Shown here: positions 37,210-43,774 of the stretch, one piece after another
Layout: every line of letters starts with the position of its first letter
How positions within the stretch are numbered: the first letter of the stretch is position 1
DNA from: a virus
Taxonomy: Duplodnaviria > Heunggongvirae > Uroviricota > Caudoviricetes
Reading direction: 5' to 3' (one strand)
Length of the DNA: 47,882 nt
IMG/VR virus record: IMGVR_UViG_2897375277_000002
Program-made: the position numbers and the translations under genes
The notes under the pieces: generated by a model
What the model was told of the DNA's origin: nothing
The model's input: the letters and a program-made list of their open reading frames with translations, nothing else
Databases searched by the model: none

Positions 37210-37542
37210 TTAATGTGGTGTGCTTCGTGACAATAAATTAATAACCAACACACCGGCACAAATCAACATCATGCCTATAATAGCTGGCAGGTCCAGCCGT
37301 TGGTCGAAAAGTCCCCATGACAGTAAGCTAATCAGGACAATACCGACTCCTGACCAGATAGCATAAGCAATCCCTGTAGGAATATAAGCCAGCGTCTGAG
37401 CTAATAACCAGAATGATGCACAATAACAAATAATTGTACCAACAGATGGCCATAACCGTGTAAAACCTTCTGAAAACTTCATTAAGGTTGTACCAATGAC
37501 CTCTGCAAGTATTGCACCACCAAGATAAATATAAGGGTTCAT
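37210..37542 (-). CDS. emrE: SMR-family multidrug efflux transporter EmrE
   Basis: Start set at MNPYIYLGGAILAEVIGTTLMKFSEGFTRLWPSVGTIICY... (110 aa), matching E. coli EmrE; ORF track extends 18 codons upstream. Confidence 0.9.
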   Translation of the reverse strand: MNPYIYLGGAILAEVIGTTLMKFSEGFTRLWPSVGTIICYCASFWLLAQTLAYIPTGIAYAIWSGVGIVLISLLSWGLFDQRLDLPAIIGMMLICAGVLVINLLSRSTPH

Positions 37543-37609
37543 AGCATATTCTTTCCTGTTCAAACTGGAGAGAATTGTACTACAGTTTGAACTCAACTCA
37601 CCTGTTTCA

Positions 37610-37912
37610 TCATTGTGTACCCATTGATGTTCTTTTATATACCCTCAATACCCGTTTCATCGCGGCACTCTGGCGACACTCCTTAAAAATCAGATTCGTG
37701 CTCACCTTTCCTTCCCGTTCTTCTCTGGTAGCGAACCGGTAATACACCGTTCGCCAGACCTTACCATCAACGACCAGGATTCCTGCCCGCGCCATTTTAG
37801 CCGCAGCCTGATTTATGCTGGTTACGGTTGCGCCTGTTACCGCGGCAACGTCCTGTGCACAGAAGCTCTTATGCGTCCCCAGGTAATGAATAATTGCCTC
37901 TTTGCCCGTCAT
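37610..37912 (-). CDS. ren: Ren exclusion protein
   Basis: 100-aa ORF MTGKEAIIHYLGTHKSFCAQDVAAVTGATVTSINQAAAKMARAG... matching lambda Ren; directly downstream of P. Confidence 0.85.
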   Translation of the reverse strand: MTGKEAIIHYLGTHKSFCAQDVAAVTGATVTSINQAAAKMARAGILVVDGKVWRTVYYRFATREEREGKVSTNLIFKECRQSAAMKRVLRVYKRTSMGTQ

Positions 37913-38610
37913 ACACTTGCTCCTTTCAGTCCGAACTTAGCTTTAATTTCTGCGATCTTCGCCAGAGCCTGTGCACGATTTAGAGGTCTACCGCCCATAA
38001 CAGGAAGTTGTTTTACTGGTTCAGGTATCGTCTCACCACGGTTAATTCGCGCTGTCATACAGGTCAGTTCATCGGCAGCCTTGCGCCGTAATTCCGCGTC
38101 AGTCAGCGCATTGGCCCGCATGTTCTGGTACAAGTTGGTAACCAACCAGTAATGCGCGTTCGATTTCCACGGATAAGACTCTGCATCCGGATACAGGCCA
38201 CGCTTCCGGCAATACTCGTAAACCATATCAACCAGCTCGCTGACGTTTGGCAGCCCGGCGTTAACAGATGCTTCTTCCCGGCACCAGGCGACAAACTGCC
38301 CGGGTGATGGCAGGAATGGTCGATTCTGCCGACGGGCTACGCGCATTCCAGCGTTAACCTGTTCCATTGTGGTGATCCCGTTTTCCCGGAAAGCCAGAAC
38401 CCACTGGCGGCGGATTTCGTTCAGTTCATTCTGGTCACGGTTAGCCAGGCTCGCCGGGAAAGTTGCCAGTAACTGGCTGAACACACCGTTGATGATCTGC
38501 GCTACCTGCTGTACCTGTGGCTTTTCGTCGTACTGTTCCGGCATGTTGTTGGCGATCCGGCGCATCTGCTCACAGTCAAAGTTAACCATCTGTGCGGCGA
38601 TGTTTTTCAT
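37909..38610 (-). CDS. P: replication protein P (DnaB helicase loader)
   Basis: 233-aa ORF MKNIAAQMVNFDCEQMRRIANNMPEQYDEKPQ... matching lambda P. Confidence 0.95.
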   Translation of the reverse strand: MKNIAAQMVNFDCEQMRRIANNMPEQYDEKPQVQQVAQIINGVFSQLLATFPASLANRDQNELNEIRRQWVLAFRENGITTMEQVNAGMRVARRQNRPFLPSPGQFVAWCREEASVNAGLPNVSELVDMVYEYCRKRGLYPDAESYPWKSNAHYWLVTNLYQNMRANALTDAELRRKAADELTCMTARINRGETIPEPVKQLPVMGGRPLNRAQALAKIAEIKAKFGLKGASV

Positions 38611-39536
38611 AGCTCCACCCCGTAAATCCAGTCAGTGTTCGTCAGGTCGAGTTTTGGTTTGCCGGCTGTCACGCCAGCCTGTTGCTTGTTTCGGTTGATT
38701 TCGAGCTGGGTCCACTTGTCGCGGAGTTTGGCCGGACTTAGCACGTTACCGGACCAGAAGTTGTCCTGGCATGCCCAGCGGAACAGCACGCACATGTCGC
38801 GGTGGTTACGTCCGTCACGTTCACGCATCAGGCGGATATCGTTAGCCCACCCTGCAAAATTCGGTTTTCTGGCTGATGGCGCGATGGTCTTCACCATGTC
38901 AAACATCCACTCTGCGGCGGTCAGGTCTTCTGCTGTCCCCCACTTGCTGCCGCTCTGAATTGCAGCATCCGGTTTCACCACAGGAAGATCGTTTTCTGAC
39001 TGGTCAGAGGATTCGCCAGAATTCTCTGACGAAAAAGGTTTTATATTGTCTTTTGTTAGTTTGTCTTTTGTGTTTACCTGATTCGGGTAAACGTCTTTAC
39101 CTGATTTGGGTAAACTTTTCTTACCTGATTCAGGTAAATTTACCTCTTTCAGGTAAACTTTATTTTTCTTACCTGATTCGGGTAATGTTGACCATTCACT
39201 GACCACATTATTAATGCCGATATTCCGCCCGCTCTGAATAAAAATCCCACGCTTTACCAGAACACTTTTTGCAGCAGAACACTTGTGCGGCAATATCCCG
39301 GTCAACTCGGAAAGTTGCTCGTTGCTCACCCAATCCAGTTTTTTATTAAAGCCATATGTTTTGCGCATGACAGCCAGAAAGACCAGAAGCTGGTGCTGTG
39401 TTAATCCGGCCAGCATCACAGCTTCCAGCAACTCATTTGCAATGCGCGTATAACCATCATCGAGATCTGCCACGCGCGGCTCCTTTTGTGCCACATCCGG
39501 CACTGGAAAATTGAATATCTCAGCAGTGTTTGCCAT
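38607..39536 (-). CDS. O: replication initiator protein O
   Basis: Start set at ATG 39536 (strong SD GGGAGGAATT) giving MANTAEIFNFPVPDVAQKEPRVADLDDGYTRIANELLEA...; ori iterons lie inside the coding sequence; ORF track extends 30 codons upstream. Confidence 0.9.
   Translation of the reverse strand: MANTAEIFNFPVPDVAQKEPRVADLDDGYTRIANELLEAVMLAGLTQHQLLVFLAVMRKTYGFNKKLDWVSNEQLSELTGILPHKCSAAKSVLVKRGIFIQSGRNIGINNVVSEWSTLPESGKKNKVYLKEVNLPESGKKSLPKSGKDVYPNQVNTKDKLTKDNIKPFSSENSGESSDQSENDLPVVKPDAAIQSGSKWGTAEDLTAAEWMFDMVKTIAPSARKPNFAGWANDIRLMRERDGRNHRDMCVLFRWACQDNFWSGNVLSPAKLRDKWTQLEINRNKQQAGVTAGKPKLDLTNTDWIYGVEL
39074..39185. repeat. replication origin iterons: five copies of an approximately 17-bp palindromic unit (TTACCTGATTCGGGTAA-like)
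   Basis: Copies at about 39074, 39097, 39121, 39140 and 39169, each an internal inverted repeat (TTACC...GGTAA); an AT-rich tract at 39030-39073 follows on the O-downstream side, as in ori-lambda. Confidence 0.85.
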
Positions 39537-39622
39537 AATTCCTCCCGCAATGAGTGTGTTACGATTTGCACCTGAAAGTCGGTTCTGTTCGCGCAGACCG
39601 GCTTTCGCCATTTCCGAACCTG

Positions 39623-39805
39623 TCATATTGCCCCCAGCATGGTGGTGACCATCGCCATCAGTGGACCAGCCAGATCCGGGTCCACACGAAACATCGACAC
39701 AATGCCTTCACTCATCTCCTTCAGTTTCTGGTGGCGTGGTGCGTTGAGAATGACAGCCTGTTTTGCCTCACTGAGTTCCTTTTCCATTTCAGCCAGCCGA
39801 GCCAT
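39623..39805 (-). CDS. hypothetical small protein between cII-position gene and O
   Basis: 60-aa ORF with ATG start; no family recognised. Confidence 0.35.
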   Translation of the reverse strand: MARLAEMEKELSEAKQAVILNAPRHQKLKEMSEGIVSMFRVDPDLAGPLMAMVTTMLGAI

Positions 39806-39835
39806 GAAGCTATCCTGCTCAACCAGGTGGCCGCG

Positions 39836-40168
39836 CTATTCCAGCGGTAGTACCGCCAGAATTGCCGGGGTCAGTTCACGCACGTTATTTCGGTATTTTT
39901 CAGAATCGAATTTGTTATCGAGGAAGCGGAACAGCTTCTGGCGTGCACGGCTGACATCATCAGGAAAATCGATGGTGCCGCCGCCCTGCTCCCGATACTC
40001 ATTCACAATGAGTGCGGCAACAACATCCTGATTATCTGCAGCCGACCAGGCGCGAACGGCATCACGGATTTTTTCGTGGCCTAGCGCCTGTTTTGTTTGA
40101 GAACGATTTATCACCGCAGTCGGGCTAAATCCGCTAGTCTGTTGGTATGTAAGTGGTTGCATAGTCAT
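39836..40168 (-). CDS. hypothetical protein at the cII position (possible CII-like regulator)
   Basis: 110-aa ORF downstream of cro and upstream of O; no similarity to lambda CII that I can recognise. Confidence 0.5.
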   Translation of the reverse strand: MTMQPLTYQQTSGFSPTAVINRSQTKQALGHEKIRDAVRAWSAADNQDVVAALIVNEYREQGGGTIDFPDDVSRARQKLFRFLDNKFDSEKYRNNVRELTPAILAVLPLE

Positions 40169-40192
40169 TGCCTTATCAGTTAACGCCGCAGA

Positions 40193-40420
40193 TTAGGCGG
40201 CAGAATTACTCGCGTTAAACAATGGTGCGAGGTCGGGACGAATATCTGCTGGTTTAATCTTTCCACCAGTGGCTGAGACAATTTTCATTACATAGCGGGC
40301 ATCAATTCCGCCACCGTGTAGCCAACGCCAAACAGTGGGCTGGGCTACACCGCATAGATCTGCCAGTCGTTTTTGACTACCTGTAATACTGATTGCGAGT
40401 TGAATGGTTTGATTTGTCAT
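40193..40420 (-). CDS. cro: Cro-like HTH repressor
   Basis: 75-aa ORF MTNQTIQLAISITGSQKRLADLCGVAQPTVWRWLHGG... (HTH); divergent from cI across an operator-containing spacer. Confidence 0.8.
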   Translation of the reverse strand: MTNQTIQLAISITGSQKRLADLCGVAQPTVWRWLHGGGIDARYVMKIVSATGGKIKPADIRPDLAPLFNASNSAA

Positions 40421-40530
40421 TATTAATTCCCATTGGTATTACAATGAATAAATAATAGCAATGCGTATTAATCATAACAATAGCAAAACGTGTTTTGACC
40501 ATCAATACGCAAGCGTATAAATTAAAACTT
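40421..40530. promoter_or_regulatory. OR region with putative PR (minus strand: -35 TTGTTA at 40475-40480, 17-nt spacer, -10 TATTAT at 40452-40457) and AATAGCAA(T) operator motifs
   Basis: Hexamers and motif copies (40454-40462, 40479-40486) read directly; the same motif recurs in the putative OL. Confidence 0.55.
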
Positions 40531-41223
40531 ATGAAAAAAGAAACTCTTGCTGATCGCTTAAACCTAGCGATGGAACAATCTGGAATGTCTCAAGGCGCTC
40601 TTGCAAAGGCGTCTGGCGTAGCTCAACCCACAATCTGGAGACTGACAAGCGGCAACGCGCGCGGCTCAACAAAAATTGTTGAAATAGCTAATGCATTGGG
40701 TGTTCGAACAGAGTGGCTCTCATCAGGCATAGGCCCGATGAGAAATGACGGTCAACAATTAGGGAAGCCTACTGCCAACCATCCCAAATACTTCAAGATT
40801 GACGTTCTTGATATAGAAGTGAGTGCCGGGCCGGGAGTCATCAACCGTGAGTTTGTAGAAGTTCTACGCTCGGTTGAGTACTCGTTTGACGATGCTCGTC
40901 ACATGTTCGATGGTAGGAAGGCAGAAAATATCCGCATCATTAACGTACGCGGTGACAGCATGTCAGGAACGATTGAACCTGGTGATCTTCTATTCGTTGA
41001 TATCACGGTTAAATCTTTCGACGGTGATGGTATCTATGCGTTTCTGTACGACGACACAGCCCATGTAAAGCGCCTGCAAATGATGAAGGATAAGCTGCTG
41101 GTTATCTCTGATAACAAAAGCTACTCACCGTGGGACCCGATCGAGAAAGATGAGATGAACCGGGTATTTATCTTCGGGAAAGTTATTGGGAGCATGCCGC
41201 AGACGTATAGGAAGCATGGATAG
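40531..41223 (+). CDS. cI: CI-type repressor (N-terminal HTH, C-terminal S24 LexA-like peptidase domain)
   Basis: MKKETLADRLNLAMEQSGMSQGALAKASGVAQPTIWRL... with C-terminal ...GDSMSGTIEPGDLLFVD... (Ser-Lys dyad type). ORF track starts at a TTG at 40495; ATG 40531 preferred, likely leaderless. Confidence 0.85.
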   Translation: MKKETLADRLNLAMEQSGMSQGALAKASGVAQPTIWRLTSGNARGSTKIVEIANALGVRTEWLSSGIGPMRNDGQQLGKPTANHPKYFKIDVLDIEVSAGPGVINREFVEVLRSVEYSFDDARHMFDGRKAENIRIINVRGDSMSGTIEPGDLLFVDITVKSFDGDGIYAFLYDDTAHVKRLQMMKDKLLVISDNKSYSPWDPIEKDEMNRVFIFGKVIGSMPQTYRKHG

Positions 41224-41303
41224 TACCAATTAAAAATTATCAACCGGGCATTGTGCTCATTCAGTAAAACAACTTAATTATTCATTTTAGAATGGAGAAC
41301 TTA

Positions 41304-42365
41304 ATGGATACTTTAAAATATGAGAAATTCTCTGATTTTGATCACAATGACCCATTTTTTGACTCTTTAAAAAAAGATTATAAAGAGTTTCCTCTTTGGT
41401 TAGAAAAAAAAGCCAGAGAAGGAGAATCAGCTTATGTGCTCTATGATGACAAGCATAAAATCGAAGGTTTTATGTATCTAAAAGAAAATGATGATGCAAA
41501 TGACATTAATCCAGCGCTCCCACCAGGACGTCATCTAAAGATAGGAACATTCAAATTTGAATCTAAAGGCACCCTTCGCGGACAACGATTTCTAAAAAAA
41601 GCGTTTGACCATGCATTTTCATCAAAATCTGATGATATTTATGTTACTGTTTTCGACAAACACGTCCATCTAATAAAACTTTTCCAAACGTACGGATTTT
41701 ACATTCATGGTGAAAAAGAAACACATAACGGGAAAGAGTTTGTATATGCGAGGTCTTTGCATGAGCCTTATGGTGATATTTTATTAGATTACCCTCGAAT
41801 AATGACATCAAGGGCCAACAAATATTTACTGGCGATTTATCCCGAATATCACACTAGACTATTCCCTGATTCAAAACTTGTAAATGAATCACCAGATATT
41901 GTCAAAGATATATCCCATGCTAACAGCATTCATAAAATTTACATATGTGGAATGCGTTCTGTGATGGGAATGAAAAGAGGAGATATCATTGTCATCTATA
42001 GAACCGGAGACAAAAAAGGGCCAGCTCGCTATCGTTCTGTAGCCAGTACATTATGTGTAGTTGAGAGCGTAAAAAATATTTCTGAATTTTTAAGCGAAGA
42101 TAGTTTTGTAGACTATTGTATTCGTTTTAGCGTATTTTCTGAAGATGAACTCAGAAAAATCTATAAAGAACGTCGATACCCTTTCATTATAAGATTCACA
42201 TACAATCTGTCTTTGCCAAAGAGACCCAATCGTGCTATTTTAATAGATCATGTGGGGCTAAATGGTTCGCGTGCATTCCGATGGAGTCACTTTAAACTCA
42301 CAAATGAGCAGTTCTTAAAGATCATCGAGTTAGGCAAGATAAATGAAAGTTTTATTATCCATTAA
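41304..42365 (+). CDS. GNAT-like acetyltransferase domain protein with uncharacterised C-terminal domain (rex-position cargo gene 1)
   Basis: ORF 41292..42365; ATG at 41304 has an SD (GGAGAA). Segment LRGQRFLKKAFDHAF...DDIYVTVFDKHVHLIKLFQTYGFYIHGE resembles GNAT motifs A/B; AT-rich; no lambda counterpart. Confidence 0.6.
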   Translation: MDTLKYEKFSDFDHNDPFFDSLKKDYKEFPLWLEKKAREGESAYVLYDDKHKIEGFMYLKENDDANDINPALPPGRHLKIGTFKFESKGTLRGQRFLKKAFDHAFSSKSDDIYVTVFDKHVHLIKLFQTYGFYIHGEKETHNGKEFVYARSLHEPYGDILLDYPRIMTSRANKYLLAIYPEYHTRLFPDSKLVNESPDIVKDISHANSIHKIYICGMRSVMGMKRGDIIVIYRTGDKKGPARYRSVASTLCVVESVKNISEFLSEDSFVDYCIRFSVFSEDELRKIYKERRYPFIIRFTYNLSLPKRPNRAILIDHVGLNGSRAFRWSHFKLTNEQFLKIIELGKINESFIIH

Positions 42366-42720
42366 GCCTGAGTTTGCAGAAAAAATATTGAACGGAACAA
42401 AGCGGTTCGAGTTTCGTAAAGGTATATTCAAAAATCCGCAAATTAGCACCGTTGTTATTTATGCCACGATGCCATTAGGTAAAGTTGTTGGTCAATTCCG
42501 TATTGAATCAATACTAAGTGACGAACCGGAATCTCTTTGGAAAAAGACGGAAAAACACGCAGGTATTTCTAAGCAATTTTATGACTCATATTATTCAGGT
42601 AGAGAAAAGGCCTACGCAATAAAAATTGGTGAAGTGGAAAGATATAAAGAACCAATTCCTATCTCTGCTCTAGGTAGTAATATTAAGCCACCACAATCAT
42701 ATCTTTACCTACCTGCGTAA
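42343..42720 (+). CDS. ASCH-domain (PUA-like) protein (rex-position cargo gene 2)
   Basis: 125-aa ORF MKVLLSIKPEFAEKILNGTKRFEFRKG... with the ASCH N-terminal signature; overlaps gene 1 by 23 nt. Confidence 0.65.
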   Translation: MKVLLSIKPEFAEKILNGTKRFEFRKGIFKNPQISTVVIYATMPLGKVVGQFRIESILSDEPESLWKKTEKHAGISKQFYDSYYSGREKAYAIKIGEVERYKEPIPISALGSNIKPPQSYLYLPA

Positions 42721-42724
42721 GAAT

Positions 42725-42751
42725 CCCGGCCACCGTGCCGGGTTTTCTTTT
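42725..42751 (+). terminator. intrinsic terminator ending the cI / cargo operon
   Basis: CCCGGC-CACCGT-GCCGGG hairpin followed by TTTTCTTTT immediately after the ASCH gene stop. Confidence 0.7.
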
Positions 42752-42837
42752 GTCCCCTCATCACACAAACCGTTCGAAAAACCACCACATCCTCCCTTCA
42801 GTTATCGCTATGCGATGCAAGTCACAAAATTAATTCT

Positions 42838-42918
42838 TTTTGCTATCAAACAGTTAATATCAAAACACATCAATCAATAGCAATAAGTATTGATACAGCC
42901 AATAGCAATAGCTATTAT
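42838..42918 (+). promoter_or_regulatory. putative OL/PL: -35 TTGATA (42890-42895), 17-nt spacer, -10 TATTAT (42913-42918), with CAATAGCAAT operator copies at 42875-42884 and 42900-42909
   Basis: Consensus-like hexamers with 17-nt spacing on the + strand pointing toward gam/bet/exo; the operator motif is shared with OR. Confidence 0.55.
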
Positions 42919-42991
42919 CACCATGTCGCAACAACACAACGATACGGCAATCACCTGATTCACCGTTGCGATGACCGCTTAGATCCGCAGC

Positions 42992-43402
42992 TTGAATTTC
43001 AGCAGGCTCCGGGGAGTGCGAGGGGTGAAGCGGACGCGTGAACGTCGGTGTGACCAGCTGAAATCAACTCAACACCTCATACCTCAGTCGCTTCAACGAG
43101 GCGGCTTAGTTATGACAACCGGCGGCCATCCACCGCCTGAATACGCGCAGAAGTCTCTATATGTTCAGCAGCCCAGCTTACGGGCAGGAGTTTTTATGGT
43201 TCATCAACATTACGGAACGCAGACCGTTAATCGCGGTGCGGTCATGCCAGGAATGCTGGTCAAACACAAAGATGGTACCTGGACTGCATCAGCTAATTTA
43301 CGCGGACGGCTTTATCTGCATCGCGGCATCGAGCGCACTTATACCCGTGATTTGCTCGTGGAAGTTTTTCTCGACGGACGCGGTAACGGCCTGAATCGCT
43401 AA
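42992..43402 (+). CDS. hypothetical early-left protein with Arg-rich N-terminus (possible N/Nun-like antiterminator; start uncertain)
   Basis: ORF begins at TTG 42992; alternative in-frame GTG at 43016/43025 (…VKRTRERR…) or ATG at 43112. First ORF after the putative PL; no confident family match. Confidence 0.35.
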
Positions 43403-43477
43403 TCCCCTTTCCTGTTTTCCTAATCAGCCTGGCATTTCGCGGGCGATATTTTCACAGCCATTTTCAGGAGTTCAGCC

Positions 43478-43774
43478 ATGAACGCTTATTACATTCAGGA
43501 TCGTCTTGAGGCTCAGAGCTGGGCGCGTCACTACCAGCAGATCGCCCGTGAAGAGAAAGAGGCAGAACTGGCAGACGACATGGAAAAAGGCCTGCCCCAG
43601 CACCTGTTTGAATCGCTATGCATCGATCATTTGCAACGCCACGGGGCCAGCAAAAAAGCCATTACCCGTGCGTTTGATGACGATGTTGGGTTTCAGGAGC
43701 GCATGGCAGAACACATCCGGTACATGGTTGAAACCATTGCTCACCACCAGGTTGATATTGATTCAGAGGTATAA
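43478..43774 (+). CDS. gam: Gam (RecBCD inhibitor), short form
   Basis: 98-aa [42 protein letters not shown]... matching lambda GamS; the in-frame upstream region has no start before a stop. Confidence 0.9.

Follow-up and report, generated by a model that had tools for sequence, protein, structure and literature searches.

Predicted cI and Cro operators of a lambdoid phage: a 16-bp dyad repeated in the cro-cI intergenic region and upstream of PL

The subject of this work is a repeated 8-mer, AATAGCAA, in the immunity region of a lambdoid phage (Caudoviricetes) represented by a 47,882-nucleotide stretch of DNA (IMG/VR record IMGVR_UViG_2897375277_000002). We refer to this stretch, at its full length, as the window; its orientation is opposite to that of the standard lambda map. 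We predict with high confidence that the copies of this 8-mer are half-sites of operators for the phage's own cI and Cro proteins, in a lambda-like layout with one cluster between the divergent cro and cI genes (the right operator region, OR) and another at the early leftward promoter PL (the left operator region, OL). The operator set would be ordinary in kind, though apparently undescribed, and belongs to a widespread immunity type, with a specificity that the evidence supports as distinct from that of lambda. The lambda paradigm is confirmed by it, not changed.

The repeated 8-mer and its dyads

An exact search of the 47.9-kb window found AATAGCAA four times, always on the plus strand, at 40454, 40479, 42876 and 42901. 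Two copies fall in each of two regulatory regions, the cro-cI intergenic region and the region upstream of PL, and they are 25 bp apart in both. The initial annotation of this DNA, made from its letters alone, had reported copies at 40454-40462 and 40479-40486 and a recurrence of the motif in the putative OL. Both observations are borne out: the extended form AATAGCAAT is located at 40454-40462, the copy at 40479-40486 is AATAGCAA itself, with the longer CAATAGCAA beginning one base earlier (40478-40486), and the OL copies are those at 42876 and 42901. Counted over the whole window, four copies do not significantly exceed chance (1.94 are expected, and 7 of 100 shuffles reach 4), and the significance of the motif lies in its placement rather than in this count. 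When the two AT-rich regulatory regions alone (73% and 64% AT) were simulated with a first-order Markov model, the same 8-mer was repeated in both regions in 14 of 20,000 simulations.

The full unit is an imperfect palindrome of 16 bp, of which the 8-mer makes up the left half. The consensus of this palindrome is AATAGCAA followed by TTGCTATT, and its 14-bp core, ATAGCAA-TTGCTAT, is conserved at the outer positions and free in the centre. We regard this operator consensus as fixed, because the OR1 equivalent of phage Fraca is the perfect palindrome AATAGCAATTGCTATT. The dyad pattern AATASSNNNNSSTATT, with up to one mismatch allowed, has 6 matches in the window against 1.07 expected, a number that none of 100 shuffles reached, and every match lies within the two regulatory regions. 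Three tandem 16-bp dyads stand between the divergent cro and cI genes, starting at 40454, 40479 and 40504 in 25-bp steps (OR1 to OR3; Table 1). The suggestion that the motif is an operator is upheld by its position, its conservation and its absence from phages in which the C-terminal domain is the only part of cI held in common with the window. It was incomplete: what had been described is the half-site of a 16-bp dyad, OR3 had been overlooked, because both of its halves are the variant AATACG, and so had the additional candidate sites. A position weight matrix (PWM) was trained on five sites (OR1 to OR3, OL1 and OL2), with the candidate site at 40425 held out; the best background score elsewhere in the window is 11.7.

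The dyads overlap the predicted rightward promoter PR and the predicted cI promoter PRM (both consensus matches) exactly, and the hexamers of these promoters are conserved in relatives. The PR candidate that had been named together with the motif was recovered by our consensus scan, with the motif overlapping its -10. At PR, the spacer and 4 nt at the start of the -10 are covered by OR1, and 2 nt at the start of the -35 by OR2; OL1 and OL2 cover the corresponding parts of PL. The register of OR1 and OR2 to PR is thus exactly that of OL1 and OL2 to PL, the last of which reads toward kil. The end of OR2 is 1 bp from the PRM -35, and OR3 occupies the stretch between this hexamer and the PRM -10, which it overlaps. 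What is conserved of PR in relatives is the TTG of its -35 and the TAT of its -10; in PRM, TTGAC together with T1, A2 and T6 of the -10 carries at least 1.8 bits (near 2) in 62 relatives. The PRM -10 ends 7 nt before the cI ATG, an arrangement that is also conserved in relatives. The cI mRNA from PRM is probably leaderless, as in lambda, because a start 7 nt past the -10 would be the ATG at 40531 and no Shine-Dalgarno (SD) sequence is visible.

Conservation, covariation and the candidate readers of the motif

The segment 40190-41230 is 99.9% identical to Escherichia phages 4A7, Lambda_4C10, D2, 1W and 3W and 96-99% identical to Perceval, PhiR70_1, PhiR68_2 and PhiR30_1. Comparison of six phages of the same immunity places most of their substitutions either in the spacers that separate OR1 from OR2 and OL1 from OL2 or immediately next to the sites. 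Within OR, they affect 3 of the 9 positions of the OR1-OR2 spacer and the sequence to the left of OR1, with one change inside an operator (position 12 of 16, in the right half of OR2); OR1 is invariant. The variable parts of OL are the OL1-OL2 spacer and 3 bp upstream of OL2, in addition to two single changes within sites; OL1 is conserved, and so is OL2 while the spacers that flank it vary. The same six strong sites are present in all six phages despite differing genes between cI and OL. Conservation in phages that share the repressor was one of the points on which the initial annotation had staked its proposal, and the motif is conserved in them while the spacers vary.

A tblastn search with the N-terminal 91 residues of cI gave more distant relatives, namely the Salmonella P22-like phages ST104, BTP1 and SE1 (76% identity), a Klebsiella phage (73%), Fraca (69%), a Yersinia phage (54%) and APC_JM3.2 (48%), all of which keep a QP(T/S)(I/V)W(R/K) helix and the three-site array. 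Scanning one genome per species gave 80 prophage loci, with cI N-terminal domains 50-95% identical to that of the window (78 examined), in Kluyvera, Citrobacter, Enterobacter, Erwinia, Pantoea, Mixta, Proteus, Providencia, Morganella, Xenorhabdus, Serratia and Edwardsiella, among other genera of the Enterobacterales. Upstream of cI, the commonest 5-mer, counted with no prior motif, is ATAGC (263 occurrences in 78 regions), and the commonest exact dyads include ATAGC-N4-GCTAT and ATACG-N4-CGTAT. Sites in relatives lie at about -77, -52 and -27 from the cI start, and the three-site array with 24-25 bp spacing is found in 75 of 84 regions. OR3 is at -27 from the ATG in nearly all relatives, and OR2 at -52, where its right half merges into the conserved TTGAC of the PRM -35. 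A second cluster with 25-bp spacing is present downstream of cI in every relative checked.

A site logo anchored on its own half-site score was circular for the scored positions, and it was replaced by an alignment of 62 loci anchored on the cI start only. The outer six positions of each half-site carry 1.2-1.7 bits of information in this alignment (1.3-1.7 bits for the outer positions of OR1), the four central site positions 0.5-0.9 bits and the spacers 0.4-0.5 bits. Consistently across many genera, OR3 carries AATACG on its OR2-proximal side and OR1 and OR2 carry AATAGC.

The predicted operator sequence also co-varies with the DNA-binding helix of the repressor, with three half-sites for three helix types. 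In the window and its relatives the cI helix is QPTIWR or QPSVWK (with QPTVWR in the Cro of the window) and the half-site is ATAGC. HK639 and Stx1a-converting phages have the cI helix SQPAIQKM and sites of the type ATAACC-N2-GGTTAT, with the half-site ATAAC, and IdasGreatGrand and PhiR26_1, with SQAAIQKI in cI and SQQAVYKW in Cro, have dyads of the AACCATGGTTGT type, with the half-site ACAAC. One 14-bp frame, A-N-A-N-C...G-N-T-N-T, is found in every helix group, and the groups differ at positions 2 and 4.

With IdasGreatGrand, PhiR47_2, Turner, PhiR34_1, PhiR5_1 and PhiR26_1, the cI gene of the window aligns in its C-terminal half only (92-97% identity). No window-type sites were found in 6.5 kb of either IdasGreatGrand or PhiR26_1, the two of these phages that were inspected. 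The N-terminal domain, Cro and the operators all differ from those of the window in both IdasGreatGrand (locus 2663-2766) and PhiR26_1 (2660-2763). This points to a recombination junction inside cI, near codon 80, because the C-terminal domain is shared and the N-terminal part and the operators are different.

The first of the two candidate readers, cI, matches Pfam HTH_3 (28.3 bits, cut-off 23) and Peptidase_S24 (67.2 bits, cut-off 23.3), has the recognition helix QPTIWRL at residues 32-38 and carries the S24 cleavage motifs Ala99-Gly100, Ser143 in GDSM and Lys180 in KRL. Its domains and motifs mark it as a putative autocleaving repressor of the LexA/cI S24 type, with cleavage predicted, and RecA-stimulated autocleavage is the likely induction route. 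Residues 6-66 are similar to the DNA-binding domain of the 434 repressor (phmmer E 1.5e-5 to 1e-4 over ~60 residues, 32-36% identity). In an AlphaFold2 model of cI, the third of five helices spans residues 32-40; the best Foldseek matches of the model are 434 Cro and 434 repressor (2cro, 2or1 and 1pra; TM-score 0.72-0.92, root-mean-square deviation 1.2-1.9 Å), the values for 434 Cro (2cro) being 0.81/0.92 and 1.4 Å. Aligning the helices pairs Gln32 of cI with Gln28 of 434, Pro33 with Gln29 and Arg37 with Gln33. Structures of the 434 repressor-operator complex assign recognition of the first adenine to Gln28 and of base pairs 4-5 to Gln33. By analogy, we hypothesise that the retained glutamine would fit the conserved A1 and that the arginine would fit the G at position 4.

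The other candidate reader, Cro, matches Pfam YdaS_toxin (PF15943, E 9.6e-15), and its nearest solved structures are the Xylella prophage Cro 3bd1 and XPH1 5w8y. Its recognition helix is QPTVWRW, and a helix is common to both proteins (GVAQPTVWRW in Cro, GVAQPTIWRL in cI). In 46 of 77 relatives, the region upstream of cI contains a divergent open reading frame (ORF) that encodes a QPxVWxW-type helix; this figure comes from a loose, frame-independent search, our ORF heuristic having missed cro in the Erwinia/Pantoea group. Fraca has the same cI helix type but the Cro helix KQPSVSRW.

Three other explanations of the repeats have to be weighed. They might be by-products of AT-rich promoters (-10-like or UP-like sequence) that bind no protein and recur as PR resembles PL. 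Both regions are AT-rich, the sites do overlap promoter hexamers and the raw count of the 8-mer is unremarkable; however, OR3 and the 40425 site show the same dyad without standing in equivalent promoter positions, the dyad symmetry, perfect in OR1 of Fraca, has no promoter rationale, conservation peaks track the dyad (ATA...TAT) and dip in its centre, and the motif changes with the recognition helix while promoter architecture stays constant. We therefore consider promoter by-products highly improbable. Slightly more room, though still very little, is left for the view that the sites serve one regulator only, or that ATACG-type sites (OR3) belong to Cro and ATAGC-type sites to cI. In its favour, Cro is of the YdaS family, other than that of the 434-like N-terminal domain of cI, the AATACG of OR3 differs from the AATAGC of OR1 and OR2 across many genera, and some relatives with the same cI helix have a deviating Cro helix, as Fraca does. 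But QPT(I/V)WR is common to cI and Cro in the window and most relatives, as would be expected of two readers of the same sites, and a half-site preference would be a refinement like the OR1/OR3 preferences in lambda and no contradiction.

The third alternative, a host factor or another phage regulator (CII-like or YdaT-like, IHF, Fis or LexA) as the binder of the motif, has next to no probability in our estimation. TTGC is the half-site of lambda CII and is contained in TTGCTATT, and the regions are AT-rich like IHF and Fis sites; against this, the spacing is 25 bp and not that of a 10-bp TTGC-N6-TTGC repeat, there is no LexA box, and a site for a host factor would stay the same in heteroimmune phages that infect one host. 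The motif moreover tracks the cI/Cro helix though the cII genes are unrelated (a 282-nt c2 in BTP1, a 540-nt YdaT-like gene in the window). We reject CII, LexA, IHF and Fis on the grounds of the spacing and of the covariation with this helix.

Several points nevertheless weigh against operators for both cI and Cro. The right half of OR2 (CGTGTT) and OL3 in the window are poor matches to the dyad, and part of the conservation within sites coincides with promoter hexamers and the cro SD. Our promoter scan gave 9 promoter-like sites in a 3-kb stretch against 8.6 expected; because its matches are near the chance number, PR, PRM and PL are supported by position and conservation and not by the scan. 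The covariation is based on only three other helix types in a handful of phages, and the peptide pattern used for the genome scan included the recognition helix, such that the scan tests the retention of operators and not covariation. The AlphaFold2 model was built from a single sequence, and one of five models was confident (pLDDT 83.9; 47-55 for the rest). Finally, the word 'operator' is absent from the BTP1 papers, and we found no published description of operators or binding for this repressor type in a search that left most subscription journals outside.

Probable additional sites and the predicted switch

Three further sites (40425-40440 on the OR side, and OL3 and OL4 on the OL side) are probably additional operators. 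The first occupies roughly +5 to +20 on the transcript from PR, inside the 25-nt leader of cro, where it covers the SD; its PWM score is within the range of OR2 and OR3. Most relatives have a counterpart 29-30 bp from OR1, in which the good half differs between clades, and conservation of the 16-mer peaks at A2, T3, T13 and T15, which are outer operator positions, exceeding the conservation of the SD. HK022 has an extra operator, O_FR, that shares the specificity of the three OR sites and is situated downstream of the PR start, past cro; the candidate here is likewise downstream of PR, but within the 25-nt leader and over the SD. Position 40431, which is in the cro leader beside the SD and at the centre of this candidate fourth operator, is C in the window and T in five aligned relatives; 4A7, D2, 1W and 3W have one mismatch in 1041 bp, probably 40431 as well.

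On the OL side, Klebsiella phage 6 LV-2017 has a strong site, AATAGCCATTGCTATC, at the position of OL3, 19 bp from OL2. OL4, 69 bp upstream of OL1, keeps its register in the window, BTP1, APC_JM3.2, ST-29 and the Klebsiella phage; of these, all but ST-29 have the four OL positions in register, and ST-29 has three of the four. Both OL3 and OL4 are invariant among the same-immunity phages.

We entertain as possible, without favouring it, a 4+4 operator layout rather than a simple 3+3 and, separately, a series of helices and half-sites that amounts to a readable recognition code of the 434 family. The proposed series runs QPTIWR/ATAGC, QPAIQK/ATAAC, QAAIQK/ACAAC and, for 434, QQSIEQ/ACAA. If real, the 40425 and OL4 sites could place a further layer of control on cro, by roadblock or translational occlusion, or supply additional partners for looping between OR and OL.

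With operators for cI and Cro as the preferred reading, the switch can be sketched as follows. Each 16-bp site would presumably be bound by a dimer of cI or Cro through the same helix, QPT(I/V)WR. In a lysogen, cI dimers on OR1 and OR2 would cover the spacer, the -10 and the edge of the -35 of PR, and those on OL1 and OL2 would do likewise on PL, such that early leftward and rightward transcription would be shut off. From OR2, 1 bp away from the PRM -35, cI could stimulate its own transcription, and occupation of OR3, inside PRM, would lower cI synthesis. DNA damage would lead to self-cleavage of cI at Ala99-Gly100 via Ser143 and Lys180, upon which PR and PL would fire; Cro made from PR would then bind the same sites and shut PRM. 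We only infer binding, the order of occupancy, cooperativity, PRM activation and OR-OL looping.

Known immunity systems and the surrounding genes

A comparison with other lambdoid immunity types, which had also been suggested for this motif, places the region with neither imm-lambda nor imm434 but with the ST104/BTP1 type. The layout is close to that of lambda: divergent cI and cro flank three tandem dyads, with a second cluster at PL some 2.4 kb off; the first operator of each cluster extends over the promoter spacer and -10, the second reaches the -35, OR2 is adjacent to the PRM -35, and OR3 is within PRM. Also as in lambda, cI has an S24 domain with Ala-Gly, Ser and Lys and is probably leaderless, and accessory genes occupy the rexAB slot. 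In the annotated lambda record, 2359 bp separate OR from OL, and site centres are spaced 24 and 23 bp in the former and 24 and 20 bp in the latter; the corresponding spacings in the window are 25 and 25 bp in OR and 25 and then (for the weak OL3) 19 bp in OL, over a distance of 2397 bp. The sequences, however, are different. The predicted operator is the 16-bp AATAGCAATTGCTATT here and the 17-bp TATCACCGCCGGTGATA in lambda, cI is 24% identical to lambda cI (E 0.022), and Cro, of the YdaS family here, is marginally similar (26% over 46 residues, E 0.004). Allowing 5 mismatches, no lambda-consensus 17-mer is found in OR or OL, so that the region does not fall under imm-lambda, and lambda contains no array of the present kind. 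The initial annotation had suggested an immunity distinct from that of lambda, and we agree. The candidate extra sites are a further difference, as is the lack of an N-like antiterminator ORF between PL and kil (42919-43111).

The 434 operator consensus is ACAA-N6-TTGT. Likeness to 434 is found in the homologous N-terminal domain of cI, the 14-bp length of the core with its conserved outer 4-5 bp and variable centre, the retention of both Gln32 (Gln28 of 434) and A as the first operator base, and the sharing of helix-3 residues between repressor and Cro. In contrast to 434, the half-site is ATAGC and not ACAA(T/G), helix 3 is QPTIWR and not QQSIEQ, one more base pair is conserved on each side (A...T), which gives 16 bp, and Cro, being of the YdaS family, is no paralogue of the repressor domain. 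The architecture thus appears to be of the 434 type, but the predicted specificity is not that of imm434.

The closest likeness is to ST104 and BTP1: tblastn puts the N-terminal region of their cI at 76% identity over 91 aa, and the recognition helix is the same. BTP1 has the Cro helix KQPTVWRW, the OR sites AATAGCAATTAGTATT, AATAGCAAAACGTGTT and AATACTCAAGCGTATA, and OL sites 25 bp apart, and from these sequences the window phage and BTP1 are probably homoimmune or nearly so. They are otherwise different phages: BTP1 is a podovirus of the genus Lederbergvirus and the phage of the window a Bievrevirus-like lambda relative, the host genus is another, and BTP1 has an N gene, a short c2 activator and bstA downstream of cI. 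The ST104 repressor was listed as a separate, unstudied specificity type in the 2008 comparison of P22-like phages (PMC2629481). BTP1 cI is reported to be the expressed prophage repressor, cotranscribed with bstA from a single start site (PMC7067206), and BTP1, of the invasive Salmonella ST313 lineage, has an unusually high and unexplained spontaneous induction (PMC5322425).

The immunity type is common: OR and the cI N-terminal region are present in 719 of 5426 complete E. coli genomes, and the same helix occurs in prophages of many Enterobacterales genera, including Salmonella BTP1. With its operators known, homoimmune prophages could be predicted and virulent mutants and reporter fusions designed, and operator strength as a cause of the leaky repression of BTP1 would become testable. 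The type would also add a fourth specificity to the 434-family repressor/operator series for use in orthogonal synthetic switches.

Table 1. Predicted operators, promoters and genes of the immunity region (window coordinates)
Feature	Coordinates	Strand	Sequence	Remarks
P	37909-38610	-		
O	38607-39626	-		
cII-like gene (YdaT family)	39623-40168	-		
cro (YdaS family)	40193-40420	-		75 aa; ORF and Pfam
cro-cI intergenic region	40421-40530			110 bp
Candidate fourth OR-side site	40425-40440		AATTCCCATTGGTATT	PWM score 16.7, though held out of training
PR candidate	-35 40480-40475; -10 40457-40452	-	-35 TTGTTA; -10 TATTAT	17-nt spacer; consensus scan
OR1	40454-40469		AATAGCAATGCGTATT	exact match to dyad pattern; PWM score 21.2, second highest in the window
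OR2	40479-40494		AATAGCAAAACGTGTT	start 25 bp from OR1 start
PRM candidate	-35 40495-40500; -10 40518-40523	+	-35 TTGACC; -10 TAAATT	17-nt spacer; consensus scan
OR3	40504-40519		AATACGCAAGCGTATA	one mismatch to dyad pattern; 12 of 16 positions self-complementary
cI (HTH_3 and Peptidase_S24)	40531-41223	+		230 aa; ORF and Pfam
Accessory ORF	41292-42365	+		357 aa; without Pfam match
Accessory ORF	42343-42720	+		125 aa; ASCH domain
Terminator-like hairpin	42725-42742	+		
AT-rich region with OL sites and PL	42832-42918			
Possible OL4	42832-42847		AATTCTTTTTGCTATC	right half-site TTGCTAT good
Possible weak OL3	42857-42872		AATATCAAAACACATC	score only 6.5 of 9 here
OL2	42876-42891		AATAGCAATAAGTATT	start 25 bp from OL1 start
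PL candidate	-35 42890-42895; -10 42913-42918	+	-35 TTGATA; -10 TATTAT	17-nt spacer; consensus scan, 10 of 12 matches
OL1	42901-42916		AATAGCAATAGCTATT	top PWM score, 21.4; 14 of 16 positions self-complementary, best dyad in the window
kil	43112-43402	+		

The leader between PL and kil was examined for an antiterminator RNA, since HK639 is annotated with a putL-like one at the equivalent position. The window leader has no convincing similarity to that of HK639, and its fold is no better than those of shuffled sequences (z -0.44); a search of 39500-43500 against Rfam gave chance-level eukaryotic matches only, with none in the leader.

Among the genes around the operators, those in the rexAB slot after cI (41292-42720) differ in content between phages of the same immunity, with bstA occupying it in BTP1. 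The YdaT-family cII-like gene has an in-frame amber codon (TAT to TAG) at 39836-39838 on the minus strand, which results in ORFs of 110 aa and 60 aa; the ORF is unbroken in 4C10 and Perceval (540-546 nt), and the remainder of the gene there is nearly identical to that of the window. Because the amber codon splits this gene, the present copy of the phage may establish lysogeny poorly. A small multidrug efflux gene of the EmrE/SMR type lies beside ren and P (37210-37596, minus strand), both here and in relatives, and is so annotated in Perceval, 4C10 and the PhiR phages.

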